A stretch of 64,000 nt of DNA from Thermoplasmata archaeon (GCA_046704665.1 JBJKRJ010000025.1:17772-81771); one strand, 5' to 3'; numbered from the stretch's first letter, positions 1 to 15,416 are shown. Made by a program: numbers and translations. Notes: generated from the sequence alone by a model not told the origin.

Positions 1-165
1 ATCGGAGAACGGAAAGCCGAGCTCGAGCGCGTGGGCGCCAGCGTCCCGTAGCGCTTCCGCGGTCGGGACGAGCGCCCTGCGACGCCGCCGGTCGAGAAGG
101 AGGTACGGGACGACGATCGGTTCCTCCCGCGCCCGCGCGGTCCGAAGGGCGCTATCGAGCCGCAT
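1..165 (-). CDS. trpA: Tryptophan synthase alpha subunit, N-terminal fragment (gene runs off the window start)
   Basis: Manual translation of the minus strand from ATG at 165 gives [55 protein letters not shown]. It ends in the TrpA ELG(F/I)PFSD motif. It overlaps the trpB stop by 14 nt. It is not in the ORF track because it is truncated. Confidence 0.75.
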
Positions 166-1309
166 CCTGCACCACTCCGAGATCCTTGTCGCCCCGGCCC
201 GAGAGCGTCACGACCACGTGGTCGGTCGCCGGCCGCCGGCGCGCCTCCTCCACCGCGACGTAGAGCGCATGCGAGGCCTCGAGCGCCGGCAGGATCCCTT
301 CGTCCTCCGCGAGCCAGTGGAACGCCCGGAGCGCTTCGCGATCGTGCACCGAGCGGTACCGGACCCTGCCCGACGCCTTGAGCCAGGCGTGCTCGGGACC
401 GACCCCGGCATAGTCGAGACCGGCCGAAACGCTCTCGGTGTCGGCGATCTGGCCGTCCTTGTCCTGGAGGACGTAGGAGTAGGTGCCGTGCAGGATCCCG
501 GGGCGACCGTGGGAAAGAGAGGCCGCCCCCCGGGATCCCTTCGGTCCCCCGGCCTCCACACCGAGCAGCTCGACCTTCGTGCGGAGGAGGGGGTGGAACG
601 TTCCGATCGCGTTCGAGCCGCCTCCGACGCACGCGACGGCGAGGTCGGGGAGACGCCCAAAGGCGGGGGGCGACTGGCGCCGGATCTCCCGGCCGATGAC
701 GCTCTGGAAGTCGGCGACGATCGCGGGGAACGGGAACGGTCCGACGGCCGAGCCGAGGAGGTAGTGGGTGGTGCGCACGTTCGTGATCCAGTCGCGGAGC
801 GCGGCGTTGATGGCGTCCTTCAGGGTCTTGCGGCCCGTCGTGACCGGGACGACCTTCGCACCGAGGAGGCGCATCCGCTCGACGTTCGGCCGTTGGCGCG
901 CCATGTCGACGGTCCCCATGTAGACCTCGGTCTCGAGGCCGAGCGCCGCACCGACCATCGCGGTCGCCACGCCATGCTGTCCCGCACCGGTCTCGGCGAT
1001 CAGCCGGGGCTTGTCCATGCGGAGCGCGAGCAGCCCCTGGCCGAGGGCATTGTTGAACTTGTGCGCTCCCCCGTGGACGAGGTCCTCGCGCTTGAGCCAG
1101 ATCTCCGCCCCGCCGGCGCGCTCGCTCAATCGCCGGGCGTGGTAGAGCGGGGTCGGCCGTCCTCCGAGCGTGCGGGAGAGCCGCGCGTGCTCCTTCCGGA
1201 ACGCCGGGTCCTGCCGCGCCTCCTTCCAGACCCGCTCGAGCTCCTCGAGCGCCGGGACCAGCGTCTCGGGCACGAAGGCGCCACCGAACGGGCCGTAGCG
1301 TCTAGCCAT
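152..1309 (-). CDS. trpB: Tryptophan synthase beta subunit
   Basis: Internal ATG at 1309 of ORF 152..1861. The product starts [17 protein letters not shown] and contains [15 protein letters not shown] and GGGSNAIG (PLP-dependent TrpB motifs). The 5' part of the listed ORF is Arg/Ser-rich junk that overlaps trpF. Confidence 0.95.
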
Positions 1310-1949
1310 GTCCGTGCTCGAACTCCCCGACGGCGCGCAGGAACGCGCGCATCTTCTCGATGTCCTTGATGCCGGGTCGGCTCTCGATCCCCGAGGAGAC
1401 GTCGACCCCCCAGGGCCGCACGGTCGCGAGCGCCTCGGCGACGTTCTCCGGAGAGAGTCCGCCGGCGAGGATGAACTTCCGTCCCGGGTGTGCATCGACG
1501 ATCCCCGCGCAGACCGTCCAGTCCGGGCGGGTTCCGCTCCCGCCCGGGAGCGGCTGGCCGGCCGCGTCGAGATGGACCCGGGGGAAGTCCTCCGGCGCCG
1601 GGATCTTCGGTTCCGTGCCCCCCGGCCCCGGCGGGGCGATCGGCACCGAGGGAACGAGGTGGTGCACCTCGAGGAACTCGAGGCCCGTGGGGACCTCACC
1701 GTAGACCTGCACGCGGTCGACCCCGACCTCACCAAAGAGGCGGTGGATGAGCTCGGCGGACGGTCGCACGACGACCGCCCATGCCTCGGCGTCCGGAGGG
1801 ACGTTCGCGACGAGCTCCGCGGCGCGTTCGGTCGTGAGGTTCCGCGGCGAGGCGGGGACATCGATGACGAAACCGGCGGCCCCGCCGTCCGGGACCTCGG
1901 CGAGCGCGGCGGGGTCGGTGATCCCGCAGAACTTGACGAACGTCCTCAC
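1302..1949 (-). CDS. trpF: Phosphoribosylanthranilate isomerase
   Basis: GTG at 1949 forms a GTGA overlap with the trpC stop. The product starts [14 protein letters not shown] and ends ...GGLSPENV...GVDVSSGIE, typical of TrpF. The upstream part of ORF 1302..2369 is non-genic. Confidence 0.85.
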
Positions 1950-2752
1950 GAGCGCCTCCCGGCCGATGGCCGGCGGAGAGAGGCGAGGAAGCGCCCGGGG
2001 TCGGCCGCCCGCGCGACCGCCGTACCGATGAGGATACCGTCCGCTCCCGCGTCCCAGAACCACGCCGCGTCCTCCGGGGAGGCCACGCCGCTCAGCCCGA
2101 GGAGGGGCCGAAGGCCCGCGTCCCGGGCGGCCGCGATCGTGGCGAGCGCCGTGGGCCGGTCGATGCGGAGCGTATCGAGGTCCCGTACGTTGACGCCGAA
2201 CATGTCCGCATCGACCTCTACCGCGTCGGGTAGTTCTGTCTTCCGATGGAGCTCGAGGAGGACCTCGAGGCCCCGGTCGTGGGCCGCACGCGCCAGCGCG
2301 ACGAGGGGCCGCCGGAGGAGCCCTTCGGTCGCGAGCCGGGCGATGAGCAGCACCGCGCTCGCCCCGCACCGGGCCGCAACGTCGAGCGACCTAAGGTCCG
2401 TGATGAAGTCCTTGAACAGCACGGGACGGTCGGTGGCACGTACGAGTTCCGCGACATCGCCCGGGCACCCATCGAAGTGAGGTACGGTCGCGAGGCAGGA
2501 GAACCCGACGACCCCGGGGGCGTCGGCGCGCCGGACGAACTCCCGGGCCGCGTGCACGGGAAGCCGGGGCTCGGACTGCCCGGGCGAGACCCGCTTGAAC
2601 TCGACGAGCAGCGGTCCGTGACGCGCCCCGTGCTCGATCGCGCCTCGTAGGCTCGGCGGCCGAGCGCCCCTCTCGGTCGGAACGCCCTCGAGGTACCTCG
2701 GGTCCCGGGCCGCGACTTCGTTCTGCCGTACGACCTCGGCGAGGAACCCCAT
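1946..2752 (-). CDS. trpC: Indole-3-glycerol-phosphate synthase
   Basis: 268-aa ORF with LLVEFKRVSPG, KDFI and ELH motifs of IGPS. It sits between trpD and trpF. Confidence 0.9.
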   Translation of the reverse strand: MGFLAEVVRQNEVAARDPRYLEGVPTERGARPPSLRGAIEHGARHGPLLVEFKRVSPGQSEPRLPVHAAREFVRRADAPGVVGFSCLATVPHFDGCPGDVAELVRATDRPVLFKDFITDLRSLDVAARCGASAVLLIARLATEGLLRRPLVALARAAHDRGLEVLLELHRKTELPDAVEVDADMFGVNVRDLDTLRIDRPTALATIAAARDAGLRPLLGLSGVASPEDAAWFWDAGADGILIGTAVARAADPGRFLASLRRPSAGRRS

Positions 2753-2754
2753 GG

Positions 2755-3792
2755 TCAGCCCCCCGCCCCGCGAGGGAACCCGCGCGCGAGCTCGCGCAGC
2801 TCCCCGAGGAGCTCTTCCGCCGCTCCCGAGTCGATCGCTTCCCGCGCCCGCCGGATCCCTTTCTCGAGCGTCGCCGCACGGCCCGCGATCCAGATCGCAG
2901 CGCCGCTCGTCAGAAGGACCGAGCCCCGTCGTGCGCCGCCTCCCCCTGCGAGAAGCCGCTCGGCCTCCTCGGCCGCCTCACGGGACGGGAGCGCCCCCCA
3001 GTCGCCGCGCCGGTCCTCGGTCGGAAGGTACCTCTCGGGACGGACCAGGATCCGGCGGGACGAGCTCTCGTTCCAGCGGACCGCCGTGGTCGGTCCCCGC
3101 GGGGAGAACTCGTCGCATCCCTCGGGGGAGGTCATCGTGAGGCCCCCGAGCACCCCCAGCCGGGGCATCGCGACGGCGACCCGGCCCGCGGTCGAGAGGT
3201 CCGGGACCCCGACCACCTGGAACGGGACACGGGCCGGGTTCGACAGCGGCCCCAGCCGGTTGAAGATCGTCGGGATGCCGAGGAGCCTGCGCGCCGGTCC
3301 CACGACCGCCGTCGCTGGGTGGAAGAGCGGAGCATGCAGGAACGCAAGTCGGGTCCTCGCGTAGGAGGCCCGCGCAAAGTCGGCACGGGAAGTGACCGGG
3401 AGTCCGAGCGCCTCGAGAAGGTCGCTGGACCCGGAGGGCGCCCGAGCGCTGCGGTTGCCGTGCTTGACGACCGGTACGCCGGCGGCCGCGACCACGAAGG
3501 CGCTGACCGTGGAGACATTGTACGAGGGCCTCGGAGCACCGCCGGAGCCGCAGAGGTCGACGGGTCGGTCCTCGCGCGGCACAGGGAACGGCCGGGCGCG
3601 TCGCCGCATCTCGAGGGCGAACGCGGCGAGCTCGGTCGCGTCCTCGCGTCGCGACGCGAGCGCGACGAGGATCGCGGCACGATCGGCGTCGGAGGCCTCC
3701 GGTGCGAGGAGCGTGTCGAACGTATCGCGCGCTTCGGGCTGCGCGAGGCGCCGGGGGTCGAGCAGCCGCTGGAGTGTCGGCGCGAGGTTCAT
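2755..3792 (-). CDS. trpD: Anthranilate phosphoribosyltransferase
   Basis: ATG at 3792 forms an ATGA overlap with the trpG stop. The product starts MNLAPTLQRLLD and contains DLCGSGG, KHGNRS and SGSSDLLEALG (TrpD motifs). Confidence 0.93.
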   Translation of the reverse strand: MNLAPTLQRLLDPRRLAQPEARDTFDTLLAPEASDADRAAILVALASRREDATELAAFALEMRRRARPFPVPREDRPVDLCGSGGAPRPSYNVSTVSAFVVAAAGVPVVKHGNRSARAPSGSSDLLEALGLPVTSRADFARASYARTRLAFLHAPLFHPATAVVGPARRLLGIPTIFNRLGPLSNPARVPFQVVGVPDLSTAGRVAVAMPRLGVLGGLTMTSPEGCDEFSPRGPTTAVRWNESSSRRILVRPERYLPTEDRRGDWGALPSREAAEEAERLLAGGGGARRGSVLLTSGAAIWIAGRAATLEKGIRRAREAIDSGAAEELLGELRELARGFPRGAGG

Positions 3793-4370
3793 CGTCGGAC
3801 CTCCTCGACGAAGTTCTCGAGGATCTCGGGACCGTACCGGGTGAGGTACGACTCCGGATGGAACTGGACCGACGTGACCGGTCGACTCCGATGGCGAAGG
3901 GCCATCACGAGGCCGTCGGTCCCCCGGGCCGATACTTCGAGCGACGCGGGGACCGATGCCGGGTCCACCACGAGCGAGTGGTAGCGGGCGGCGACCATGG
4001 GCGACGGCACCCCCCGGAAGATCCCGCGACCGTCGTGGCGCAGCCGTGAGACCTCCCCATGGACCGGGGAAGGGGCCCGTACCACCCGGGCCCCGTAGTG
4101 CTCGGCGATCAGCTGGTGGCCGAGACAGATACCGAAGAACGGCCGCTCTCGGTCCCACCGTCGCAGGAGGGCCCGGGCCAGCCCGGTGAGCCGGGTGTCG
4201 CTCGGATGGCCCGGTCCCGGAGATAGGACCACCGCGTCCGGATCGACGGAGACCGCCTCGTTCCGCGGTACGGTCGCCCGAAGGCAGTGGACCTCGACAC
4301 CCCGCGCGGCGAGCGCCTGCCGCACGTTGTGCACGAACGAGTCCTCATGATCGATCAGCAGGAGCTTCAT
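3789..4370 (-). CDS. trpG: Anthranilate synthase component II (glutamine amidotransferase)
   Basis: ATG at 4370 forms an ATGA overlap with the trpE stop. The product starts MKLLLIDHEDSFVHN and contains the GICLGHQ catalytic Cys motif and FHPES. Confidence 0.93.
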   Translation of the reverse strand: MKLLLIDHEDSFVHNVRQALAARGVEVHCLRATVPRNEAVSVDPDAVVLSPGPGHPSDTRLTGLARALLRRWDRERPFFGICLGHQLIAEHYGARVVRAPSPVHGEVSRLRHDGRGIFRGVPSPMVAARYHSLVVDPASVPASLEVSARGTDGLVMALRHRSRPVTSVQFHPESYLTRYGPEILENFVEEVRR

Positions 4371-5560
4371 GCCGTCTCCCCGACCAAGGTCGCCTCGAGG
4401 TGCGAGAGCTTCGCGAGCGTCTCCCGGAACTCCTGGGCCGGGACCGAGCGGTGGACGATCCCCGCACCGGCGGCGGTGTACAGGCGCCGGCCGGCCGCGA
4501 ACGCGGTCCGTATCGCGAGCGCCCAGTCGCCGCGGCCGGCGCCATCGAGAAGCCCGACCGCGCCCGCATACGGCCCCCGCCAGCTGTCCTCCTCCCGACG
4601 GAGGAGCTGGGTCGCACGGATCTTCGGGGCCCCGCTCACGGTGCCGGCAGGGAACGTCGCGCGCAGGACGGACCAGGGATCGCACCCCTTCGGCAGGACC
4701 GCCGAGACCCGGCTCACCAGGTGATCGAGCCGGGCGTAATGGACGCGCCGCTCGCTCCAGAGGAGCCGGACCGTCCCCGGTCGGGCGAACTGGCCGAGGT
4801 CGTTGCGTGCGAGGTCGACCAGCATCCGGTGCTCGGCGAGCTCCTTCGGGTCGACCTCGAGCGCCGGCCGACGCGCGCGCCCGGGTTCGGCCCAGAACGT
4901 CCCGGCGATCGGGTTCACGAACGCTCGGCCGTCGCGCACCTCGCAGACCGATTCCGGAGTCGCCCCGACGATCTCCCGCTCGCCGAACCTGAGGTAATAG
5001 AAGTACGCATACCTCTCCGAGGCGCGGAGCCGGCCCGCACGGACGAGGAGATCGGTCGGCCGGGACCAGGTGCGTCGGTGGGAGAGGACCGCCTGGAACG
5101 CCTCGCCCTCGCGGATCGCACGCTGAAGCCGGCGGACGCCGGACTCGAACCGGCGTCTCGGCAGGGTGTCCGCCTCCGGCGCCGCGGGGTCGGACGGGAC
5201 GGGTGCGGCGAGCGGTCGGGGGGAGATCCGGCGGACCGTGGGGTCGCGGACGAAGGCGAACTCCCCGAGCGGAAACGGGCTCCCGGTCGCGAAGGTCGCG
5301 AGCGCCGGCTCGATCAGGCCGACCGCATCGAACCCGAGGTACCCGAGGACCGTACGGTGACCGGGTCCCGCGAGGAACCGGTGCGAGGCACGCGCCACCT
5401 CTTCGAAACCGGTAGAGCCATTGATCGGGAGGACCGCGTCGGCGCGGGTGAACGAGACCGCGAGGCCCGCGCCGCGGCCGGCGACGGCGCTCCGCTCAAA
5501 GTAGCCCGCGGTCTCCGACCGTTCGGCCCGGGCGACGAACTCCGACCAAGGGTCGCTCAT
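4367..5560 (-). CDS. trpE: Anthranilate synthase component I
   Basis: 397-aa ORF. The C-terminal chorismate-binding region has FPAGTVSGAPKIRA, RGPYAGAVG and AGAGIV motifs. The N-terminal domain is short. Confidence 0.9.
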   Translation of the reverse strand: MSDPWSEFVARAERSETAGYFERSAVAGRGAGLAVSFTRADAVLPINGSTGFEEVARASHRFLAGPGHRTVLGYLGFDAVGLIEPALATFATGSPFPLGEFAFVRDPTVRRISPRPLAAPVPSDPAAPEADTLPRRRFESGVRRLQRAIREGEAFQAVLSHRRTWSRPTDLLVRAGRLRASERYAYFYYLRFGEREIVGATPESVCEVRDGRAFVNPIAGTFWAEPGRARRPALEVDPKELAEHRMLVDLARNDLGQFARPGTVRLLWSERRVHYARLDHLVSRVSAVLPKGCDPWSVLRATFPAGTVSGAPKIRATQLLRREEDSWRGPYAGAVGLLDGAGRGDWALAIRTAFAAGRRLYTAAGAGIVHRSVPAQEFRETLAKLSHLEATLVGETA

Positions 5561-6876
5561 CGTCCTCCGTCCCGAACGAGGGCACGGTGCATCGCACGGA
5601 GGACCGCAGGCCCCCGGGTCTCGGGGACCGCGAGCGAGAGCGCGCGGGGGGTCGCGCTGAATCCTTCCGCGCCCGCCACCGCCGACGGGGGGACCCGGTC
5701 GAGGTCGGCGAGGATCCCGTCGCCGATCGCGATCACGAGCGTGACCGGGAACGGCCCCTCGACCGCCGCGGCGGCCTCGCGCGTCATCGGCTCGAGGGCG
5801 CGCAGGGTGCGCGCGACGTCCGCCGGTTCCAGCACGAGGCAGAGGAGCGCCGAGGACGTGTAGAGCTGGACCAGGTTCACGTCCGCGGCCGCGAGCCTTC
5901 GGGAGAGCTCGGCGACGATCCCGGGTCGCTGGCGACCGCCCGGTACCCTCAGGCGCAGGAGCCGGAGCCGCCGGATCCGCGTCAACGCCCGGTTGTGACG
6001 CCGTGCGTTCCCCGGGCCGATGGTCGTGACGACCGAAGGGTCCTCGAGGGAACGGACCTTGAGGAGGATCCCGTGGGCGCGCGCCGGCTCGATCGTGAGC
6101 GGATGGAGCACCTTCGCCCCGAACTGGGCAAGCTCCTCGGCCTCCTCGTAAGAGAGCTCGGAGATCGGTCGGGCCTCGGGGACCTCCCTCGGGTCGGCGG
6201 AGAGGACCGCGACGTCGTGCTTGACAAGCTCGACCCGGGCGGCGTCGAGGAGCGCCCCGATCCCGGCCGCGGCGTAGTCCGACCCTCCGCGTCCCAGGGT
6301 CGCGACCCGTCCCTCCAGGCTGCGACCGAAGTACCCCGTCACGACCGGGAGCTCGCCCCGTTGGAGCCGGCGGCGGAGCCCGTTCCGGACCGCCGCCCGG
6401 GACCGGTCGAACAGGATCAGCGAGGCGCCGTAGCTATTGTCCGTGATGAGACCGAGATGGTCGGCCTCGATCGGTACCGACGGGAACCCGGCGCGGCGTA
6501 GCTCCTCCGAGAGCCAGTGGACCGCGAGGCGCTCCCCCTGGCTCAGGAGCCGGTCGGACCGCGCGGGATCCGGGTCGTCGGCCCTCTCGAGCTCTCCGAA
6601 GAGGCGTCGCACCCGCTCGAGCTGCCGTCGGCCGGCGTCCGAGAGTCCCGGGTGCCGCTCCCGCAGTCGCTCGACGATCCTCCGGTGGAACGCGCTCGCC
6701 CTGGGGCGCGCGAGGCCCTGGAGCAGGAGATCGGTGACCCCCTGACGGGCAGAGACGACCACCACGACCGGCGCGCCCGCCGCCCGGACCCCCCGGAGGT
6801 CCTCCACGACCCGGAGCGGATCTTCGAGCGTGGCCCCGCCGAACTTCACGATCACGGGGGACGGACCCGACGGCAC
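5557..6876 (-). CDS. ask: Aspartate kinase with C-terminal ACT-like region
   Basis: GTG at 6876 lies 8 nt downstream of GGAGG (alternative GTG at 6855). The product has VIVKFGGATL, LGRGGSDYAA and FGAKVLHP motifs. The ATGA overlap of its stop with the trpE start is visible at 5557-5560. Confidence 0.88.
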   Translation of the reverse strand: MPSGPSPVIVKFGGATLEDPLRVVEDLRGVRAAGAPVVVVVSARQGVTDLLLQGLARPRASAFHRRIVERLRERHPGLSDAGRRQLERVRRLFGELERADDPDPARSDRLLSQGERLAVHWLSEELRRAGFPSVPIEADHLGLITDNSYGASLILFDRSRAAVRNGLRRRLQRGELPVVTGYFGRSLEGRVATLGRGGSDYAAAGIGALLDAARVELVKHDVAVLSADPREVPEARPISELSYEEAEELAQFGAKVLHPLTIEPARAHGILLKVRSLEDPSVVTTIGPGNARRHNRALTRIRRLRLLRLRVPGGRQRPGIVAELSRRLAAADVNLVQLYTSSALLCLVLEPADVARTLRALEPMTREAAAAVEGPFPVTLVIAIGDGILADLDRVPPSAVAGAEGFSATPRALSLAVPETRGPAVLRAMHRALVRDGGR

Positions 6877-6881
6877 CGGTG

Positions 6882-7955
6882 CTATCCTCCCTCGCGCGAA
6901 AGGAACCCTCGCGCCCGGAGCAGCTCGGCATTGAGGACGGACCCTCCCGCCCCACCGCGGACCGCATTGTGCGAGAGCACGAAGAACCGCAAGTACGGCG
7001 GCGACCACCGGACCCGTCCCACGACCACGGCCATGCCGCGCGCCCGGGGCGGGGCGCCGGCCCAGCGGTCCCGGAGCGGCTGGGGCCGGTCCGGCTCGTC
7101 CCGGACCTCGATGGGAGGACGGGGCGCGGTCGGCAGATCGAGCGGGCGCAGCGGATCGAACTCCTTCCACGCGCGAACGATCTCGGAGAGCGGCGCCCGC
7201 CGCCCGGCGTCGATCGTCACCGCCTCGAGGTGCCCCTCCCGTGTCCCCACGCGCGCGCAGTGGGCGAGGAACGGCACGTCGAGCTCCCGCACCCGGCCCG
7301 AACGGTAGCGCCCGAGGATACGGGCCGACTCGCGCGCGATCTTTTCCTCCTCCTCACGGATGAACGGGACGACGTTGTCGGTGATCGCGAGCGAGGGGAC
7401 GCCGGGGTAGCCGGCGCCCGAGAGCGCCTGGTAGGTTGCCACATGGACGCCCCGAGGACGCAGAACTCCGAGGAGGGGGGCGACCGGCAGGACCAGCCCG
7501 GTCGTCGAGCAGTTCGCGTTCGTGACCAGGAGGCCTGCACCCGAGCGCCGTCGTCGCAGGAGTTCGAGGTGATCGGCGTTCACTTCCGGAACGAGCAGCG
7601 GGAAACCGGGATCGAGACGGTGGTCGGCGGCGTTCGAGAAGACGGAGACCCCGCGGCGGACCAGCTCCGACTCGACCGGGCCCGCGGTCCCCGAAGGGAG
7701 CGCCGAGAAGGCGACCCGGACCCCGGCACGTACGAGCTCCGAAGGCGTCGCCGGTAGGAGCCGAGCTCCCGCGAGGTCCTTCGGTGGGTCCTCCGCGAGC
7801 TGCCAGAGCTCCTCGAGCCGCTTCCCTTCGGAACGTTCTCCCCCGACCAGCTTCGGCGCGTCGAAGTGCGGATGGTCCGCGAGCAGGCGCGCGAAGTGCT
7901 GGCCGATGTAGCCACCCGCCCCGAGGATCGCCGTAGGGATGCGCGGGTCGCTCAT
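6882..7955 (-). CDS. asd: Aspartate-semialdehyde dehydrogenase
   Basis: ATG at 7955 forms an ATGA overlap with the aroC stop. The product starts MSDPRIPTAILGAGGYIGQ (NAD(P)-binding) and contains the TNANCSTTGL active-site Cys motif. Confidence 0.9.
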   Translation of the reverse strand: MSDPRIPTAILGAGGYIGQHFARLLADHPHFDAPKLVGGERSEGKRLEELWQLAEDPPKDLAGARLLPATPSELVRAGVRVAFSALPSGTAGPVESELVRRGVSVFSNAADHRLDPGFPLLVPEVNADHLELLRRRRSGAGLLVTNANCSTTGLVLPVAPLLGVLRPRGVHVATYQALSGAGYPGVPSLAITDNVVPFIREEEEKIARESARILGRYRSGRVRELDVPFLAHCARVGTREGHLEAVTIDAGRRAPLSEIVRAWKEFDPLRPLDLPTAPRPPIEVRDEPDRPQPLRDRWAGAPPRARGMAVVVGRVRWSPPYLRFFVLSHNAVRGGAGGSVLNAELLRARGFLSREGG

Positions 7956-9040
7956 GCCAGGAACCCTCCGCGCAGGGCGAGGTCGGTCAGGGCGATCGCC
8001 GCGACCGATTCGAGCACGACCACCGCTCGGGGCACGATGCACGGGTCGTGCCGGCCCGTGACGACGAGCTCCGCCGGTTCCTGCGTGGCAAGATCGACGG
8101 TCCGCTGGGGGCGCGCGATCGAGCTCGTCGGCTTGACCGCCGCGCGGAAGACGATCGGCATCCCGTCCGCGAGTCCTCCGAGGACCCCGCCGGCATGGTT
8201 CGTCTCGGTCGCGACCCGTCCGCCCCTCCATACGAACGCGTCGTTGTGCTCGCTGCCTCTCATCCGCGCCCCCTCGAACCCGGCGCCGAACTCGATCGCC
8301 TTGATCGCCGGCACGGAAAAGGCGAGGTGGGCGATCGAGCTCTCGATGGAATCGAAGAACGGCTCGCCGAGCCCGACGGGAACCCCCGTGACACGGACCT
8401 CGACGACCCCTCCGAGGCTGTCCCCCGCACGTCGCGCCTCGGCGATCGCCTCCTCCATCTGCCGGGCGACCTCGGGGTCCGGCGTTCCGACCTCTTGGGC
8501 GGCGACGCGGTCCGCAAGGGTCGCGAGGTCGATCGACTCGGCGACCTCGGCGTCGACCGGACCGATCGACCGGGTGAAGGCGACGATGGCGACCCCCTTT
8601 TCGGCGAGGAGCGAGCGCGCGATCGAGCCCGCGATCACCAGGCCCACGGTCATCCGCCCGGAGAAGATCCCCCCTCCCGAGAGGTCGGCGTCGGCCCCGT
8701 ACCGTACCCGGGCCGGATAGTCGGCGTGCCCGGGTCGCGGAGTGTCCCGCATCCGGTCGTACGGCTCGCGACGCACGTCCTCGTTCGCCACGTGGGCCCG
8801 GAAGAGCGTGCCGTCCGTCCGATCCCCCTCGCCGACGCCCGCGTCGACGACGAGGCGGTCCTCCTCCTGGCGCTTCGTCGCGAGGCGCCGTCCGTACGGT
8901 CGGCGGCGATCGAGCTCGGATTGGATGCGTCGGACGTCGATCCGGGTCCCGGGCGGCACTCCCTGGATCGCCACCCCTACCTCGGGGCCGTGACTCGAGC
9001 CGATCAGCCGGATGCGGAACCGCTCTCCGAACTCCATCAT
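7952..9040 (-). CDS. aroC: Chorismate synthase
   Basis: 362-aa ORF with GSSHGPEVG, RRPGHADY and GGGIFSGR chorismate synthase signatures. Confidence 0.93.
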   Translation of the reverse strand: MMEFGERFRIRLIGSSHGPEVGVAIQGVPPGTRIDVRRIQSELDRRRPYGRRLATKRQEEDRLVVDAGVGEGDRTDGTLFRAHVANEDVRREPYDRMRDTPRPGHADYPARVRYGADADLSGGGIFSGRMTVGLVIAGSIARSLLAEKGVAIVAFTRSIGPVDAEVAESIDLATLADRVAAQEVGTPDPEVARQMEEAIAEARRAGDSLGGVVEVRVTGVPVGLGEPFFDSIESSIAHLAFSVPAIKAIEFGAGFEGARMRGSEHNDAFVWRGGRVATETNHAGGVLGGLADGMPIVFRAAVKPTSSIARPQRTVDLATQEPAELVVTGRHDPCIVPRAVVVLESVAAIALTDLALRGGFLA

Positions 9041-10314
9041 GCGGGCCCGTCCTGCCCGGTCACCGTCTCGAGCGCGTCCCAGAAGTTGGGGTAGGACTTC
9101 GCGACGACGTTCCGCTCGCCGAGCGTAGACCGTCCCCGGGCCACCAGTGCGCCGACCGCGGCGCTCATCAGCATCCGGTGGTCGGTGAGGTCCCTCAGCG
9201 TGAGCGGCTTCACCGACCGCGTCCCTTCGATGCGGAGCCGGTCGGGTGCGACCCGGACCCGCGCCCCGAGCGCGCGGGCGAGCCGGATCGTCCCGGCCCG
9301 CCGGTCGGACTCCTTGACCGCGACGTGGGCGGCGCCCCGGAGCTCGCTAGGGCCCGGGGTGACGGCTGCGAGCACCCCCAGGAGCGGGTAGAGATCCGGT
9401 GTGTCCGTGAGATCGGCCGAGAACGGTCGGAGCGGTCCGCCGCGGACACGGACTCGCTCCCGGTGGGTCCGGACCTCGGCCCCCTGCCGGCGGAGGATCG
9501 AGAGGATCCCGAAGTCGGCCTGCGGCCAGACCGCCGCCGGCGAGATCCCTCGTACCTCGACGTCGCCGCCCGTGATCGCCGCGGCGGCCCAGAAGTAGGC
9601 GGCGCTCGAAGCGTCCCCGGGGACCGCGAACCGGGAGCGACGGTATCGCTGGCCTCCGGGGATCGAAATGCGACGACCGCGCCGTCGGAGCCGGATCCCG
9701 TGGTGGGCCAGCAGCGCCATCGTCGCCTCGATGTAGGGCCGCGAGACGGGACGTCCCTCGAGGAAGAGCGCGGAGTCCTCGATGCGAGTCGGCAGCGCGA
9801 GAAGGAGCGCGGAGGCGAACTGCGAGCTTTCGGAAGTGTCGAGGTGCACGGGGCCTCCGTGCATCGGACCGGTGATCTCGACCGGGAGTCCCTCACCCGC
9901 GCGCCGGACCCGCGCGCCGAGTCCCTCGAGCGAGCGAAGCAGGCTCTCCAGCGGCCGCTCGGAAAGCCTCGGAGCACCTCGGAGGACCACCGGCGCGTCG
10001 TGGAGGGCGGCGAGCGCGGCGACGAACCGGAGCGTCGTTCCGGATTCGCCACAGTCGACGGTGACCGAGCGATGCGGGCCATGGGACCGGGCGGGCCGGA
10101 TCGTCCAGCTCGATCGTCCGCGCACGACCGGAGTCCCGAGACGGGAGACCGCGCGCAGGCTCGCCCGGGTGTCGCCCGCATCGAGAGGACGGTCGATCCG
10201 GTAGCGCCGGCCCGCGAGATGTCCCGCGACGACCGCGCGGTGCGTGTAGCTCTTGGACGGAGGCGCGACGAGTCGGCCGGAGACCGTCCCCGGACGAAGT
10301 GATACCACGGTCAT
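9037..10314 (-). CDS. aroA: 3-phosphoshikimate 1-carboxyvinyltransferase (EPSP synthase)
   Basis: ATG at 10314 shares 1 nt with the stop of the upstream kinase gene (TGATG). The product starts MTVVSLRPGTVSGRLVAPPSKSYTHRA and contains the LGNSGTT-like segment CGESGTTLRF. Confidence 0.92.
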   Translation of the reverse strand: MTVVSLRPGTVSGRLVAPPSKSYTHRAVVAGHLAGRRYRIDRPLDAGDTRASLRAVSRLGTPVVRGRSSWTIRPARSHGPHRSVTVDCGESGTTLRFVAALAALHDAPVVLRGAPRLSERPLESLLRSLEGLGARVRRAGEGLPVEITGPMHGGPVHLDTSESSQFASALLLALPTRIEDSALFLEGRPVSRPYIEATMALLAHHGIRLRRRGRRISIPGGQRYRRSRFAVPGDASSAAYFWAAAAITGGDVEVRGISPAAVWPQADFGILSILRRQGAEVRTHRERVRVRGGPLRPFSADLTDTPDLYPLLGVLAAVTPGPSELRGAAHVAVKESDRRAGTIRLARALGARVRVAPDRLRIEGTRSVKPLTLRDLTDHRMLMSAAVGALVARGRSTLGERNVVAKSYPNFWDALETVTGQDGPA

Positions 10315-11192
10315 CAAGCCTCCTCCGGGCTCCCCACTTGGGAGGAAGATGCGATCGGGAGCCGAAGTCGTTGGCCCGGTAGTCGCCCGAGAAGCTCGAG
10401 CATTCGATCGGTCCGGGCCCGGGGGGCCACCGCGACGAGCGCCGGACCGAGTCCGCTCACTCCGGCTCCGAGCGCTCCCTCCGCCCGAAGTTCGGCGCGC
10501 AGGGACCCATACTCGTAGCCCATCACGCGTTCGACCAGCTCCGAGTTCGCTCCCATCGCGCCCCAGAGATCCCCGCTCCGTGCGAGGTCGACGATCCGGG
10601 CCCCTTCGCGGGCCACACGTGCGAACTCCGGGGTCCACTTGGGCGACGGTCCGTGGGAACGGGCCGGAACGAGGACGGCCGCCTCCCAATCCGGGTCGGC
10701 CTCCACCGAACGAAGGAGCCGTCCCTCGCGGTTGTCGGTGAGACAGAAACCCGGACGCAGACCCGCCAAGGCATCATCGAACGCCCCGGTCGCACTGACC
10801 CCCGAGGCACGGCCGATCTCGGCGGAAAGGAGAGCGACCTCGACGGCCGAGGGGACGGCCCCAGCGGCGTGCGCGACCGCCGAGACGACCGCGCTGGCGA
10901 CCGCGCTCGAGCTCTTGAGCCCCCGGGCGACCGGGATCCCGGAACGTACGGTCAGCTCGGCCTCGGCCCATGCATCCGACAGGTAGCGAGCGAGAGCGAG
11001 CCGGGCGGCGGTCTCGACCAGCGTGGTTCGGCTCTCCGGCGCAATGCGGAGCTCCTGGGGCACGGACCCGTCGGTCCGGCGTACCTCCACCTCGGCTTCG
11101 GCCGAGAGACCGAGCCCCAGGGCGCAGCCGACTCCGGTAGGGAGGGCGTTGACGATCGTGAGGGCCGCCGTCGCCCTTCCTACGCCGTGCAT
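10314..11192 (-). CDS. aroK: Archaeal-type (GHMP superfamily) shikimate kinase
   Basis: ATG at 11192. The product starts MHGVGRATAALTIVNALPTG and contains the GHMP motif GIPVARGLKSSSAVASAV. It occupies the kinase slot between aroDE and aroA. No P-loop AroK-type motif is present. Confidence 0.85.
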   Translation of the reverse strand: MHGVGRATAALTIVNALPTGVGCALGLGLSAEAEVEVRRTDGSVPQELRIAPESRTTLVETAARLALARYLSDAWAEAELTVRSGIPVARGLKSSSAVASAVVSAVAHAAGAVPSAVEVALLSAEIGRASGVSATGAFDDALAGLRPGFCLTDNREGRLLRSVEADPDWEAAVLVPARSHGPSPKWTPEFARVAREGARIVDLARSGDLWGAMGANSELVERVMGYEYGSLRAELRAEGALGAGVSGLGPALVAVAPRARTDRMLELLGRLPGQRLRLPIASSSQVGSPEEA

Positions 11193-12691
11193 CCTTCCTC
11201 CTCGAGGGTCCGCACGAGCTCCTCCTCCTCGGGCTCCTCTCCCCACCAGATCCCGAAGGTCGCCGCGGCCTGGTAGACGAGCAGCCGGGTCCCCTCCTCG
11301 TAGGTGGCGTGGGCGCGATCGGCCTCCTCCCGGAGGTACGGAAGGTCGGGGGCGTAGACCCAGTCGATCAGATGCGTGCCCTCGCGGAGCAGCCGGGAGA
11401 GCGGGGCGACCAGCGGACCCGTACCGGCGCGGCCGACGTCCGTGGCGTGTACGACCAGTCCGTCTGGTTCGGCGTGCGCCGCCGAACGGGCCTCGGCACC
11501 GAAGTCGCGGGCGATCGCGTCGGCCCGTTCGGGGGACCGCCCGTAGACGCGGGCGGACGTTCCGAGGGCCCGGGCGGCGGCGAGGGTCGCGCGGGCGGCG
11601 CCTCCGGTGCCGATGACCGAGACGGAGCGTCCGTCCCACCGCCCCTCGCGGGAGAGCTCGCCGAGGCGGCGAAGGATCGCGCTCAGGTCGGTGTTCTCCG
11701 CCGCGACCTCGGAGGGTCGGAGCGTGAGACAGTTCGCGACGCCGACCGCACGGGCCCCCGGCCCCACCTCGCTCGCGACGGCAAGAGCCGCGGCCTTCCA
11801 CGGATGCGTCACGTTGAGTCCTCGGAATCCCCACTCGGCGAGCGCCGGCAGGCTGTCCACGAACTCTTTCTCGGATGCGAGGTCGAGACTGAGGTAGAGT
11901 CCTCCGAGTCCCGCGCGACGCATCCAGCGGGAGTGCAGGGAGGGACTCTTCGAGTGGGCAATGGGATGACCGACGACCGCGAAGAGGGACGCCCGGTCCC
12001 CGGCGGCGAGGTACCGGCGGAGCCGGTCGACGGGGATCTGGCTCGGTTCGACCGGCGGGCGGTCCTCCCGCCGATCCCCCCGCTCCGGGAGCGACGCATA
12101 GACCCACGGGAGCCCAAGGCGGGCAGACAGGACCCGCAGCAGCGGACCCGAGGGACCCGTCGTCAGAGCGACGACCGAGGACTCGCCCGGAGGAGGGAGC
12201 GAGGGAATGAGCGTGCGAAGCGCCTCTCCGACGCTGGCGGCCACGACAACCTTTCGGAGCCGTCCCGGAGGCACCGCCTCACGCACCCAGCGGGACCACT
12301 CCGCCGGGTCGGCTGGCCCGAGACGATGGGTGGAAAGAATCCGCCCCGGCGGTTCTCCCGGAGGGAGCCCGAGGTCGCTCTCGCGATCCCTCTCGACCTC
12401 GAGATCGATCCATCGGAACGGGAGACGGCCGAGCGCCTTCAGAACTCGGGAACGCACCTCCGGCGCGTCCGGGCCCTGCCCTCCTTCGCTGCGGGAACGG
12501 ACGGTCGCGATGAGCGGCAGCGGGGAAGGGAACAGGTCCATTGCCCGGTCGACCTCGGCCGCCTCCCACCGGTCGAACCGCACTTCGGCGAGGTCGGCCC
12601 CGGCCACGACCGCCTCGCGCGCTTCCTCCCGGGCCTCCGCGACGGTACGCGCCGGCAGGGTCACCACGACCGTCGGGAGGCGGCCGGTCAT
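11180..12691 (-). CDS. aroDE: Bifunctional 3-dehydroquinate dehydratase (type I) / shikimate dehydrogenase fusion
   Basis: 503-aa ORF. The N-terminal half has a type I DHQase-like AEVRFD...IATVRS pattern. The C-terminal half has VVGHPIAHSKSPSLH, LNVTHPWK and VIGTGGAARA motifs of AroE. Confidence 0.85.
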   Translation of the reverse strand: MTGRLPTVVVTLPARTVAEAREEAREAVVAGADLAEVRFDRWEAAEVDRAMDLFPSPLPLIATVRSRSEGGQGPDAPEVRSRVLKALGRLPFRWIDLEVERDRESDLGLPPGEPPGRILSTHRLGPADPAEWSRWVREAVPPGRLRKVVVAASVGEALRTLIPSLPPPGESSVVALTTGPSGPLLRVLSARLGLPWVYASLPERGDRREDRPPVEPSQIPVDRLRRYLAAGDRASLFAVVGHPIAHSKSPSLHSRWMRRAGLGGLYLSLDLASEKEFVDSLPALAEWGFRGLNVTHPWKAAALAVASEVGPGARAVGVANCLTLRPSEVAAENTDLSAILRRLGELSREGRWDGRSVSVIGTGGAARATLAAARALGTSARVYGRSPERADAIARDFGAEARSAAHAEPDGLVVHATDVGRAGTGPLVAPLSRLLREGTHLIDWVYAPDLPYLREEADRAHATYEEGTRLLVYQAAATFGIWWGEEPEEEELVRTLEEEGCTA

Positions 12692-13719
12692 CGCTCCTCG
12701 ATCGTCTCCTGTACGGCGCGTCCGAGATGTCGCGCGGCGGGAAGCCGCGCTCCCAGGAGCACCGCGCCCGGGAGGAGGTCGGTGGTGGCGATGCGGCCGG
12801 CCACGGTCGTCGCACGGACCGTTTCCGCCTCCTGGAGGAAGAGCGTACGTTCCCGGCCGTCGTCCTCTGCGACGAGAAGATCGAGCGGTCGCCGCTCCAC
12901 CTTGATGCGCCCGACGCGCACGGAACGGGCCGCCCCGCGAGGTTCGATAGCGAGGACCGCGTCGCCGGCGACGAGCTCAGAGAGGTACCGGGTCGATCCG
13001 TCCGCCATCAACACGTAGGAGTGAGCGGCCCCGGCATTGACCCGGAACGGTCGGGCCCGGCTGAACCGGGAGCCCTCGGCCTCGCTCGCGACATGGAAGA
13101 GGAACGCGGCGGCGCTCCCGACGAGCAAGCCTTCGGAGGGAGTGAGGACCGAGGTCGTGTCGACTAGGACCCGGTCCCCCAGCCCCGCCGGGCGCATCGC
13201 CGAGAGCGTGACCTCCTTCCACTCGAGGCCGGTCGGGAGCGGCCCGTCGACCACGGCCTCGAGCGCATCGACGTCCTCCGGGCCGGTGACCTCGACGAGG
13301 ACCCGGTCCGCGCCGTGCTCCAGAGCGCCGAGCGCCGCCGGGACCTCGCCCGCCGAGCGGGCGTACGCCCAGAGCTCGAAGGTGCGCCCTCGGGCCGCGA
13401 TCGCGTTCTCGAGCGGGATCACCCGGTCGCCCTCCCACTCGATCGCGAGGACACTTCCCGGGGCCATCCCACGGACGGCGCGTTCCAGCTCCGAAGGGGT
13501 CGCGACCGCCACGACCGGGATCGGCGTGGATTCCCCGCCCGGTCGGAAGAGATGGTTTCCCTCCCGGTGCAGCACCTCCTCGTCGGACGAGAAGGGGACG
13601 TCGGCGTCGGGCGGAGCGACGAACGAGCGGAAGCCCCGACGGCGCGCCCGATCGAGCGTCGCGGCGAAGCGAGGTAGGTCGATCCGGGTGAGAGCGATGG
13701 TCACCCGCTCGCGCGTCAT
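12688..13719 (-). CDS. aroB': 3-dehydroquinate synthase II (archaeal AroB-prime, MJ1249 family)
   Basis: 343-aa ORF containing an RPFRVNAGAAHSY-type motif I associate with DHQ synthase II. ATGA overlap with the aroDE start. It lies directly downstream of the aldolase-like gene. Confidence 0.8.
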   Translation of the reverse strand: MTRERVTIALTRIDLPRFAATLDRARRRGFRSFVAPPDADVPFSSDEEVLHREGNHLFRPGGESTPIPVVAVATPSELERAVRGMAPGSVLAIEWEGDRVIPLENAIAARGRTFELWAYARSAGEVPAALGALEHGADRVLVEVTGPEDVDALEAVVDGPLPTGLEWKEVTLSAMRPAGLGDRVLVDTTSVLTPSEGLLVGSAAAFLFHVASEAEGSRFSRARPFRVNAGAAHSYVLMADGSTRYLSELVAGDAVLAIEPRGAARSVRVGRIKVERRPLDLLVAEDDGRERTLFLQEAETVRATTVAGRIATTDLLPGAVLLGARLPAARHLGRAVQETIEER

Positions 13720-13730
13720 CGTGCTCCCCC

Positions 13731-14483
13731 TCAGGCGACCCCGTGGAGGACGTCCGCGATCCGATGGGCCAGTGGCGCGACCGGTGCGCGCTGGAAGAGG
13801 TTCCGCCCGATGCAGATCCCGGCGCCGCCCGCAGCCACGCTGTCGCGCACGATCTCGAGGAACGCCTGCTCGTCATCCAGACGGACGCCGCCGCCGATCA
13901 GGACGGGAACCGGCGTGGTGCGACAGAGCTTCTGGAACTCGCCGTGCGAGCCGGGGTAGCTCGTCTTGACGATGTCGGCGCCGGTATCGGCCGCCGCCCG
14001 GGCGGCATGCCGCAGCTCCTCCGGGCTCCCCCCGTTCGGCTTCTTCACGTAGGCCATGCACAGGAGCGGAAGGCCGAGCCGACGGCATTCGTCGGCCGCG
14101 ATCCCGAGGTCCCGGAGCATCTCGGGTTCCTCGGGGATGCCAAAGTTCACCTGGATCGAGAGGAGATCGGCCCCCAGGCCGACCGCCTCCTCGGCCGTCC
14201 CGACGAGGACCTTGCGGTTCGAGGTCGAACCGAGGCTCGTAGAGGCCGAGACGTGGACGCCGAGGAAGGTCGTCGGGGCGAGCACCGGCACGAGCTCGCG
14301 CACGGCTCCCTTCGTGACGATCAAGAGATCGGCCCCTCCCGCCTGCAGGTCGGCGGCGAGGGGAGCGAGCTCTTCGAGCCCGTCGATCGGTCCCATCGAC
14401 ACCGGATGGTCGAGCGGCACCGAGAACAGCCGTCGGCCGGGGTCGGGGAAGAGGCGTTTCAATCGGACCGTTTTTCCGTACAT
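13731..14483 (-). CDS. aroA': 2-amino-3,7-dideoxy-D-threo-hept-6-ulosonate (ADH) synthase, class I aldolase fold (MJ0400 family)
   Basis: 250-aa DhnA/FbaB-like aldolase (FSVPLDHPVSMGP, ADIVKTSYPG with the Schiff-base Lys context). It is the first gene of the aro/trp gene string, 11 nt upstream of DHQ synthase II. A plain FBP aldolase cannot be excluded from sequence alone. Confidence 0.75.
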   Translation of the reverse strand: MYGKTVRLKRLFPDPGRRLFSVPLDHPVSMGPIDGLEELAPLAADLQAGGADLLIVTKGAVRELVPVLAPTTFLGVHVSASTSLGSTSNRKVLVGTAEEAVGLGADLLSIQVNFGIPEEPEMLRDLGIAADECRRLGLPLLCMAYVKKPNGGSPEELRHAARAAADTGADIVKTSYPGSHGEFQKLCRTTPVPVLIGGGVRLDDEQAFLEIVRDSVAAGGAGICIGRNLFQRAPVAPLAHRIADVLHGVA

Positions 14484-14675
14484 TTACTCTCTCCGTGAGA
14501 TTTCGTTCGGGAGGACCCGTCGAGAGAGGTAGGCCCAACGCCTTCAAGGCACGATGGGCCGGCGCCCTCCCGGCGCCTCCCGTTCACCAGGGCCAGACCA
14601 TGGCCGCGCGGAGTCCCGGCCGTACCACTGGGCCGCCGGATCGCGCTGCCATCGGGTAGGGCAATCGGTCTCCCC

Positions 14676-15416
14676 CTATCTACCCTTCGGAGCCCCGTCC
14701 CCCCCGTTCGTGTCCCGGAGGACCCCATCGACGAGCAGGGCATGGATCGAGAAGCCGCGGAGCATCTGGTCCCACATCTGCTTGCGGACCTCGGGAGTGC
14801 GGGCGAAGCCGGCGACGATCTGCCCGATCCACTCCGAATGCTCGACGTCGGCGACGACATGGAGATTGTAGTATTCGAGGTGGGCCTCGTCCACGTGATA
14901 GTGCTGCCGAAACGCCGGGAGGAGCCGGGCGCAGAGCTCGACGTTCGGCGGCTCAGAGGAGCCGGCCGCGGAGACGTAGAAGGTGTTCACGCGGTTCGTG
15001 TACAGAAAATCGTCGATGGCCACCATCGTGCTCGGAAGGAGGGGAGCCGACTGGACTTCGGTCCGGGGTACGCCGATCCCTTCGGCGAACCGGAGCCAGA
15101 GCTCCGGATGGCCGGGCGCTTTCCCCTTCGGGTCGCCGGCCTCCTCGACCAGCTGGTCGAGGATCATGCGTCGGTAGCGGTCGTTCTCCGGGTCCCAGGA
15201 GCAGTTCGAGAACCGCTCCGCCATCGCGATCGGCACCGACGAGAGCCACGGATAGAACTGCTTCACCCACTCCTGGACCACCGGAAGAGGAACCTCCCCG
15301 CGTTCCAGGCGATGGAAGAACGGGTGCGTCTTGAACGGGTGGTGCGCCATCTTGTACCTCGTCAGCTCGTCGCGGAACGCTTCGCCCTCGAAGCGTACCC
15401 AGGGTGGTTCGACCAT
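14676..15416 (-). CDS. Heme-oxygenase-like fold protein of the TenA/PqqC/CADD type (putative di-iron oxidase)
   Basis: 246-aa ORF with HPFFHRL, a QLVEEAGD...GHPELWLRF pattern and a C-terminal VVADVEHSEW acidic/His motif, typical of PqqC/CADD-like proteins. Confidence 0.7.
   Translation of the reverse strand: MVEPPWVRFEGEAFRDELTRYKMAHHPFKTHPFFHRLERGEVPLPVVQEWVKQFYPWLSSVPIAMAERFSNCSWDPENDRYRRMILDQLVEEAGDPKGKAPGHPELWLRFAEGIGVPRTEVQSAPLLPSTMVAIDDFLYTNRVNTFYVSAAGSSEPPNVELCARLLPAFRQHYHVDEAHLEYYNLHVVADVEHSEWIGQIVAGFARTPEVRKQMWDQMLRGFSIHALLVDGVLRDTNGGDGAPKGR

Follow-up and report, generated by a model that had tools for sequence, protein, structure and literature searches.

An aromatic supraoperon of a Thermoplasmata archaeon that contains the genes for aspartate-semialdehyde formation and follows a candidate leaderless tryptophan-codon leader

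How are the genes of an aromatic pathway that is predicted to start from L-aspartate semialdehyde (ASA) arranged in an archaeon, and what might control them? This question is raised by a 64,000-nucleotide stretch of DNA from a soil-dwelling Thermoplasmata archaeon (GCA_046704665.1), hereafter the window, which corresponds to bases 17772–81771 of a 103-kb contig. The draft genome comprises 2.37 Mb in 69 contigs, has a G+C content of ~72% and is 93.85% complete; all genome-wide negatives refer to this draft. Positions are counted from the first letter of the window, and the window features described lie on its minus strand. Fifteen genes, including those for aspartate kinase (ask) and ASA dehydrogenase (asd), fill positions 1–14483. 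Upstream of them are a TATA-box-like element, a short reading frame that ends in two tryptophan codons and a structured RNA segment. We consider it fairly probable that these form one transcription unit, in which a TATA box, a leaderless Trp leader and structured RNA precede 15 genes for the DKFP (6-deoxy-5-ketofructose-1-phosphate) entry route, chorismate, ASA and tryptophan. The most interesting element of the unit is the candidate leaderless Trp-codon leader.

The 15 genes and their junctions were listed in a first-pass annotation of the window. Open reading frame (ORF) listing and start-codon mapping reproduce every gene and every junction, and Pfam and NCBIfam models, with bit scores judged against curated cut-offs, return the same identities. 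From upstream to downstream, the order is adhS (ADH synthase), the gene for 3-dehydroquinate synthase II (DHQS-II), an aroD-aroE fusion, aroK, aroA, aroC, asd, ask, trpE, trpG, trpD, trpC, trpF, trpB and trpA. Stop and start codons overlap as ATGA between the DHQS-II gene and aroD-aroE, aroA and aroC, aroC and asd, ask and trpE, trpE and trpG, and trpG and trpD, and as GTGA between trpC and trpF. Other neighbours overlap by 13 nt (aroD-aroE and aroK), 1 nt (aroK and aroA), 8 nt (trpF and trpB) and 14 nt (trpB and trpA), or are separated by 11 nt (adhS and the DHQS-II gene), 5 nt (asd and ask) and 2 nt (trpD and trpC). An alternative TTG start of aroA at 10317 would make a 4-nt overlap. The same gene order is found in nearly all of 80 species-level loci of relatives, and is therefore not a matter of chance. 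The closest public relatives of the Asd protein are all from Thermoplasmata archaeon genomes from soil, peat and mine drainage.

The gap upstream of adhS, beyond the region annotated in the first pass, is 192 nt long and contains both a promoter element and the leader frame. The TATA-box-like element of the window, TAGATAG (14676–14682), overlaps the stop codon of the gene upstream. In 44 of 45 related loci, a box of the form YTAAATA(G/T/C) ends 22 nt upstream of the leader ATG. Archaeal TATA boxes are centred ~26 nt before the start site. At this spacing, the mRNA would begin at or beside the leader ATG. For each of the 14 internal genes, the preceding 150 nt contain no TATA-like hexamer (45–79 loci per gene), which fits one promoter for the whole unit and agrees with the earlier statement that the junctions leave no room for internal promoters. 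We infer from this arrangement that the 15 genes are co-transcribed.

The upstream gene, which is co-oriented with the operon, encodes a heme-oxygenase-like protein of the CADD/PqqC group (14676–15416; CADD family model 75 bits, cut-off 200). It is the best-conserved gene of the neighbourhood, with 68–89% identity in 49 relatives, and is always located directly upstream of the leader in the same orientation.

The candidate leader-peptide ORF (MAARSGGPVVRPGLRAAMVWPW; 14584–14652) has 22 codons. Its Trp codons occupy 14595–14593 and 14589–14587 and are followed by the stop codon TGA (14586–14584), so that the peptide ends in Trp-Pro-Trp-stop. In relatives, the frame has 18–24 codons, mostly 23, starts at the same site and always ends in W-x-W-TGA. 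This motif is found once per locus in 46 of the 80 related loci, always before adhS, and once in the genome of the window. It is invariant in an alignment of 42 leader sequences, and the remaining peptide is unconserved. In the alignment, the ATG and the first Trp codon are separated by 60, 57, 63 or 48 nt, each a multiple of 3, and no in-frame stop is present. The locus thus has the hallmark of an attenuator leader, a short upstream ORF with clustered codons for the product of the operon, which are conserved amid peptide drift. We regard the small frame as a candidate leaderless Trp-codon leader peptide that is probably translated.

Eight loci with sufficient upstream sequence have no leader, and all eight also lack trpE, trpG, trpD and trpC after ask. 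The eight loci form one clade on a tree of Asd, AroC and AroA and therefore represent one evolutionary event, so that the co-absence is consistent with a role in tryptophan control and is not independent proof of it. This sister clade (L053, L054, L057, L074, L078, L081, L043 and L042) keeps the aro genes, asd and trpF without trpE, trpG, trpD and trpC, and some of its loci are also without ask at this site. In five genomes of the sister clade, TrpE was not found at E ≤ 1e-20, including any relocated trpE with a leader. As judged from gene content, these species are probably auxotrophic for tryptophan but continue to make chorismate. Loci of other families have no W-x-W leader upstream of adhS or trpE. 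Four other short ORFs behind TATA boxes in the genome, with HHH, TATTT, WIW and WW as their motifs, were dropped as leaders; their downstream frames match no Pfam family.

The segment between the leader and adhS is able to form several helices. Hairpin P1 (14556–14581; GGG-a-GGCGCC, loop GGGAG, GGCGCC-gg-CCC) starts 3 nt after the leader stop. It is nearly invariant in the 42 sequences, with the compensatory change GGCACC/GGTGCC in two of them. Alternative potential partners for the 5′ arm of P1 are the Trp-codon/stop segment and, in most relatives, a distal CCCGGCGCC segment, which adjoins a pyrimidine tract able to cover the adhS ribosome-binding site. A further helix connects the start of the leader with the stretch just before the Trp codons and shows double changes in 12 and 17 sequences. 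Three covarying pairs are seen in the long-range helix, the competitor of P1. Taken jointly, the leader-start and long-range helices show 44 double-change cells, compared with 15.6 ± 4.3 in shuffles, and 89.7% pairing, compared with 41–63% in slid controls. Pairing of the Trp-codon/stop segment with the P1 5′ arm is feasible in 98% of cells, in columns that never vary. In the minimum-energy fold, the pyrimidine tract CTCTCTC (14528–14522) pairs with the Shine-Dalgarno (SD)-like GAGAGAG of adhS (14493–14487), the two spanning 14487–14528. Across the 42 relatives, such anti-SD:SD duplexes are weakly better than in shuffles (mean z −0.92; 18 of 42 below −1). For the leader as a whole, the fold does not exceed that of shuffled sequence in stability (z −0.67).

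These elements suggest the following course of events. The TATA box at the stop codon of the upstream gene would start a leaderless mRNA whose first frame is probably the 22-codon leader. About 100 nt of structured RNA and then the 15 tightly abutted genes would follow. When charged tRNA-Trp is scarce, a ribosome on the leader would slow at the two Trp codons. The Trp codons are 3–11 nt before the conserved hairpin, and the position of the ribosome would select among the competing helices. The choice of helix would in turn set the extent to which the operon is transcribed or translated; the direction of this control, and the level at which it acts, we can only infer. Tentatively, and with slightly more doubt than conviction, we propose that the leaderless frame of 22–23 codons ending in Trp-x-Trp-stop acts as a ribosome-based Trp sensor for the whole supraoperon, including the only ASA-forming enzymes of the cell, without a U-tract terminator.

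The access of the ribosome to adhS was modelled by equilibrium folding, with footprints set by the position of the A site. In this model, a ribosome at the first Trp codon, compared with one at the stop codon, is predicted to leave the adhS ribosome-binding site more open in 27 sequences and less open in 5 others. A first footprint model, in which a ribosome that extends into P1 opens the adhS site, was rejected; in that model the mean unpaired probability fell from 0.49 to 0.40 and rose in only 5 of 42 sequences.

Several observations count against such a sensor or limit it. The TATA box of the window itself is degenerate (TAGATAG), and the window's own sequence does not form the long-range helix of most relatives. 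The helices between the Trp-codon segment and P1 and between the P1 3′ arm and the distal segment are without compensatory changes. No U-tract terminator follows any helix and no T run is present between leader and adhS, so that no intrinsic terminator precedes the first structural gene. The modelled shift in ribosome-site access is small (0.50 versus 0.41), and the first footprint model gave the opposite of what was expected. The shared absence of leader and trp genes reflects a single clade. Finally, in a draft that is 94% complete, genes not found are not proven absent.

The same observations could be read without translation of the frame. In that case, the invariant TGG-NNN-TGG-TGA, together with the GGCGCC palindromes, would serve as an element of the RNA or as an operator in the DNA, for example for a Trp-responsive repressor that binds downstream of the start site. 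The nearly universal ability of the Trp-codon/stop segment to pair with the P1 5′ arm would suit an RNA element, and GGCGCC, present in two or three copies, is palindromic as DNA. In addition, the known archaeal regulator of trp genes, TrpY, is a DNA-binding repressor. However, neither an RNA element nor an operator accounts for the constant spacing of 22 nt between the TATA box and the leader ATG, or for four length classes that all keep the frame with no in-frame stop in any sequence. The conserved codons are those of the amino acid that the operon makes, the interior of the peptide drifts freely, as in bacterial leader peptides, and the leader region has no match in Rfam. We therefore consider an untranslated element rather unlikely.

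A translated Trp-codon leader, the reading that we prefer, has counterparts in bacteria, where leader-peptide attenuation is a textbook mechanism. The arrangement resembles enterobacterial trpL and the actinobacterial trp leader (PMC1262725) in having a short frame with two near-terminal Trp codons before Trp-making genes, and in its competing helices, one of which joins the Trp-codon segment to the one after it. Its organisation is reminiscent of the 1:2, 2:3, 3:4 scheme of trp attenuators in bacteria. It differs from trpL in being archaeal and, apparently, leaderless. Moreover, its Trp codons are one codon apart and are the last sense codons, and there is neither a hairpin-plus-U-tract terminator nor an Rfam match; control may act on translation. 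The closest analogue is the leaderless poly-cysteine short ORF of mycobacteria, which, according to a preprint (bioRxiv 10.1101/834739), opens a biosynthetic operon as its first cistron, likewise in an organism of high GC content, and has regulatory codons that match the product of the operon. As described there, it is bacterial and senses cysteine rather than tryptophan. Our literature search, which was incomplete, found no published archaeal leader-peptide attenuation and returned bacterial work alone.

What would this leader control? Between the two entry genes and asd are the genes for the remaining steps to chorismate. The aroD-aroE fusion (11180–12691; 503 aa) combines a type I dehydroquinase (PF01487, residues 10–226) with a shikimate dehydrogenase (PF08501 and aroE models, residues 235–498), and has full-length matches in other families. 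It is followed by aroK for a GHMP-type archaeal shikimate kinase (10314–11192; 292 aa; TIGR01920 182.6 bits, cut-off 126.85), aroA for EPSP synthase (9037–10314; 425 aa; TIGR01356 351.7 bits, cut-off 287) and aroC for chorismate synthase (7952–9040; 362 aa; NF003793 386.8 bits, cut-off 321). The trp genes comprise trpE for anthranilate synthase component I in a short form (4367–5560; 397 aa; PF00425 225 bits; best NCBIfam match TrpE-arch at 246 bits, under cut-off), trpG (3789–4370; 193 aa; TIGR00566 159 bits, cut-off 121), trpD (2755–3792; 345 aa; TIGR01245 266 bits, cut-off 199), trpC (1946–2752; 268 aa; PF00218 118 bits; best NCBIfam matches TrpC models, all under cut-off), trpF with a GTG start (1302–1949; 215 aa; PF00697 99.5 bits; best NCBIfam matches TrpF models, all under cut-off) and trpB (152–1309; 385 aa; TIGR00263 549.5 bits, cut-off 392). 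Only the first 55 codons of trpA are within the window (1–165; PF00290 28.7 bits on the fragment); the frame has 648 nt more beyond it and runs to contig position 17124, 270 aa in all.

Matches above curated cut-offs are obtained for the archaeal shikimate kinase, AroA, AroC, the archaeal-type Asd, aspartate kinase, TrpG, TrpD and TrpB. For ADH synthase, DHQS-II, AroE, TrpE, TrpC and TrpF, the respective NCBIfam model is the best match yet under its cut-off. Judged from these matches, the lineage is divergent. Taken together, the operon would provide ADH synthase and DHQS-II, the enzymes for the five subsequent steps up to chorismate, the sole aspartate kinase and ASA dehydrogenase of the cell, and each of the seven activities for tryptophan. 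As the first-pass annotation had noted, the cluster is without chorismate mutase, PheA and TyrA.

TrpE/PabB models match residues 135–389 of TrpE only, and its N-terminal part is not recognisable. In known enzymes, this part contains the site of feedback by tryptophan. Control may therefore rest more on expression.

Downstream of the operon, outside the window (contig C25:17065–17123), the trpA stop codon is followed by a GACGGG/CCCGTC hairpin with no T-run terminator. A convergent tRNA-intron endonuclease gene ends 55 nt away.

The position of asd and ask inside the operon was first described as giving the aromatic pathway its own ASA supply. Asd (6882–7955; 357 aa) is of the archaeal type (TIGR00978 336.9 bits, cut-off 301.2; NF006416 355) and matches both domains, PF01118 and PF02774. 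The aspartate kinase gene (5557–6876; 439 aa) has a GTG start; its product scores 220.6 bits with TIGR00657 (cut-off 208.7) and is under cut-off on the monofunctional equivalog models. In tblastn searches with the window Ask and Asd, these are the only matches in the genome. Both genes are thus the only copies of the cell, and no second pair is available for other uses of ASA. In addition, the genome contains a DapB gene above cut-off and a DapA-like gene, whose products also use ASA. Homoserine dehydrogenase was not found genome-wide (it was matched in 14 of 14 control genomes), and tblastn of the genome gave no homologue of HcyBio, which uses ASA and sulfide to form homocysteine. From this gene content, ASA appears to supply both lysine and the aromatic rings, from a sole source that lies within the aromatic operon. 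Therefore, ask-asd is the general ASA supply of the cell, not a private duplicate. The proposed coupling of ASA formation to the aromatic pathway is real as a gene order, and is ancient (see below), and the notion of a private supply falls.

With co-transcription and start/stop overlaps, the ASA-producing enzymes would rise and fall with the ASA-consuming aromatic enzymes. The pair would thus be a general ASA source placed in the operon of its main consumer. This placement is itself a difficulty for Trp-specific control: ask and asd must also feed DapA and DapB, and a strong shut-off by tryptophan would deprive lysine synthesis of ASA. Hence, the operon may be under mild control, or it may have weak internal promoters that escape notice. 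Ectoine operons (ectABC-ask) likewise hold an aspartate kinase gene within an ASA-consuming pathway. There, the kinase is an extra, specialised paralogue, whereas here ask and asd are the only copies.

Of genes for phenylalanine and tyrosine, the genome-wide search found a stand-alone chorismate mutase domain alone. Neither prephenate dehydratase nor prephenate dehydrogenase was found in the 94%-complete genome; a weak PDH_N match is ProC. The organism may depend on outside threonine, methionine, phenylalanine and tyrosine, as judged from the genes not found in this draft.

Is the asd-aro link peculiar to this genome? We searched 301 Thermoplasmata genomes for Asd and DHQS-II and fetched 21 regions. 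Every family with DHQS-II in this sample also has asd: both genes are carried by 37/37 genomes in f1, 35/35 in f8 and 10/10 in f10, asd by 37/39 and DHQS-II by 38/39 in f6, and the others behave likewise. Asd without DHQS-II is seen in f15, f16, f17, f20 and f29. In 9 of the 11 families with both genes (f1, f3, f6, f10, f26, f27, f28, f31 and f33), asd is 2–7 kb from the DHQS-II gene. The usual order in these families is adhS, DHQS-II, aroDE, aroK, aroA, aroC, a chorismate mutase/prephenate dehydrogenase fusion and asd. In f10, which includes Candidatus Sysuiplasma, and in f27, the cluster runs on with ask and trp genes. The family of the window has no mutase/dehydrogenase gene at the site between aroC and asd, and in one relative this gene is upstream of adhS; it has been lost from the aroC-asd site in this family. 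The survey of gene order indicates that the asd-aro link is ancestral and widespread in Thermoplasmata. What was taken as special to one genome is an old trait of many families. An incomplete literature search found no paper on linkage of asd or ask to archaeal aro genes.

In f6, the gene right after asd encodes HcyBio (PF01837, 492 bits; L088:10542–11753, plus strand, and the equivalent site in other f6 loci). Members of this family make homocysteine from ASA and sulfide, and asd in f6 thus lies between two ASA consumers. In f27, a second ADH-synthase-like aldolase gene (NF005556 224 bits; L091:12040–12825, plus strand; L090:7215–7922, minus strand) is located between ask and trpE; its product may carry out the DKFP-forming step, or the gene may simply be a duplicate.

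The placement of ask and asd could nevertheless be a historical accident within a general amino-acid superoperon, with no specific benefit of co-expression, the pair serving lysine and other ASA needs. It is, after all, the only pair in a genome that has DapB and a DapA-like gene, and ask has been lost from, or relocated within, the cluster in some relatives. Moreover, f8 and f5 hold DHQS-II and asd unlinked, so that the link is not obligatory, which also weighs against a functional coupling. An accident is harder to reconcile with an asd that stays beside the aro block in nine families diverging by up to ~55% in Asd sequence, and with the presence of asd in every DHQS-II-bearing family. In f6, it is again an ASA consumer, HcyBio, that adjoins asd. 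Furthermore, ASA is the direct substrate of the first enzyme of the operon, according to White 2004 as cited in PMC8305020. We judge a mere accident of history unlikely.

The presence of ask and asd sets this operon apart from bacterial aromatic supraoperons. These include the aro-trp-his-tyr supraoperon of Bacillus subtilis and the archaeal-type aro genes with trpEGDCFBA of Desulfovibrio. They share with the present operon the combination of common-pathway and trp genes in one co-directional, overlapping unit. To our knowledge, neither contains an aspartate kinase or ASA dehydrogenase gene; the present operon, moreover, is archaeal and has no DAHP synthase.

The product of adhS (13731–14483; 250 aa), of the MJ0400 family (AroA′), scores 237.9 bits with the ADH synthase model NF005556 (cut-off 241) and 218.3 with TIGR01949 (cut-off 299.45), compared with 130 for the archaeal class I fructose-bisphosphate (FBP) aldolase model and 114.6 for an LsrF-type model. 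In a phmmer search of the PDB, its best solved relative is MJ0400 (2qjg; 184.6 bits), ahead of LsrF (85) and a Thermoproteus FBP aldolase (72). In the alignment to 2qjg, MJ0400 residues D33, Y153 and K184 match identical residues. K184 is reported to be the Schiff-base lysine, and D33 and Y153 the acid/base residues. The aldolase-like gene thus scores as an ADH synthase gene, as originally annotated, rather than as one for an FBP aldolase, though its best scores are under the cut-offs. The second gene (12688–13719; 343 aa), of the MJ1249 family (AroB′), encodes DHQS-II, again as annotated: PF01959 matches with 246.6 bits (gathering score 22.2) at model positions 47–344. All NCBIfam equivalogs are under cut-off and the N-terminal ~45 residues are divergent, so the protein is, by its sequence, a divergent member of the family. 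It is the sole DHQS-II in the genome.

The first-pass annotation had suggested a check for the canonical entry enzymes. DAHP synthase (PF00793, PF01474) and AroB (PF01761) were not found anywhere in the 94%-complete draft, and control genomes gave matches. The operon is therefore predicted to encode the ASA-dependent (DKFP) entry to the shikimate pathway. It is extremely unlikely that the two genes instead form a GriI/GriH-type pair that converts ASA and triose phosphate to 3-amino-4-hydroxybenzoate for a secondary metabolite, not to dehydroquinate: such enzymes belong to the same two superfamilies and likewise use ASA (PMC10179220), and BagB/FevI and BagC/FevH models are secondary matches, but these lie far under cut-off (185.6 versus 500 bits and 137 versus 750), rank under the ADH synthase and DHQS-II models and come with no tailoring genes, and the next five enzymes require dehydroquinate, for which no other source was found.

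Two aldolase paralogues are encoded elsewhere in the genome, one LsrF-like (380 bits) and one FBP-aldolase-like. The former, an LsrF-type aldolase/thiolase (NF006081, above cut-off; G000 contig C48:2901–3722, L108:1402–2223, minus strand), adjoins a gene for an Lrp-family regulator. A link of this enzyme to DKFP supply is possible.

With ADH synthase and DHQS-II as the entry enzymes, the operon can be compared with the route of Methanocaldococcus jannaschii, the genes of which are scattered and not known to be linked to asd or ask. Here, the genes for ADH synthase and DHQS-II are the first of a single operon, in which asd, ask and the trp genes are included as well. In both organisms, the enzymes after dehydroquinate are canonical, and MJ0400 is the closest solved relative of the present ADH synthase. 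The same two enzyme families start the shikimate route from ASA in M. jannaschii, as reported (White 2004, cited in PMC8305020 and PMC4162585). Whether DKFP or fructose bisphosphate is the substrate is an open question in haloarchaea (PMC4162585).

Every sampled DHQS-II family keeps asd, mostly inside the aro cluster. The operon therefore supports, from many uncultured lineages, the view that ASA is the real aromatic precursor wherever ADH synthase and DHQS-II replace DAHP synthase and AroB, and the poorly tested DKFP pathway becomes easier to annotate. The aspartate kinase deserves attention in this respect, since its feedback may have moved towards control by aromatic amino acids. Of greater weight than the ASA link is the leader frame: as a clear and deeply conserved case with a mapped promoter box, it would offer a testable system for ribosome sensing of tRNA charging in archaeal gene regulation.

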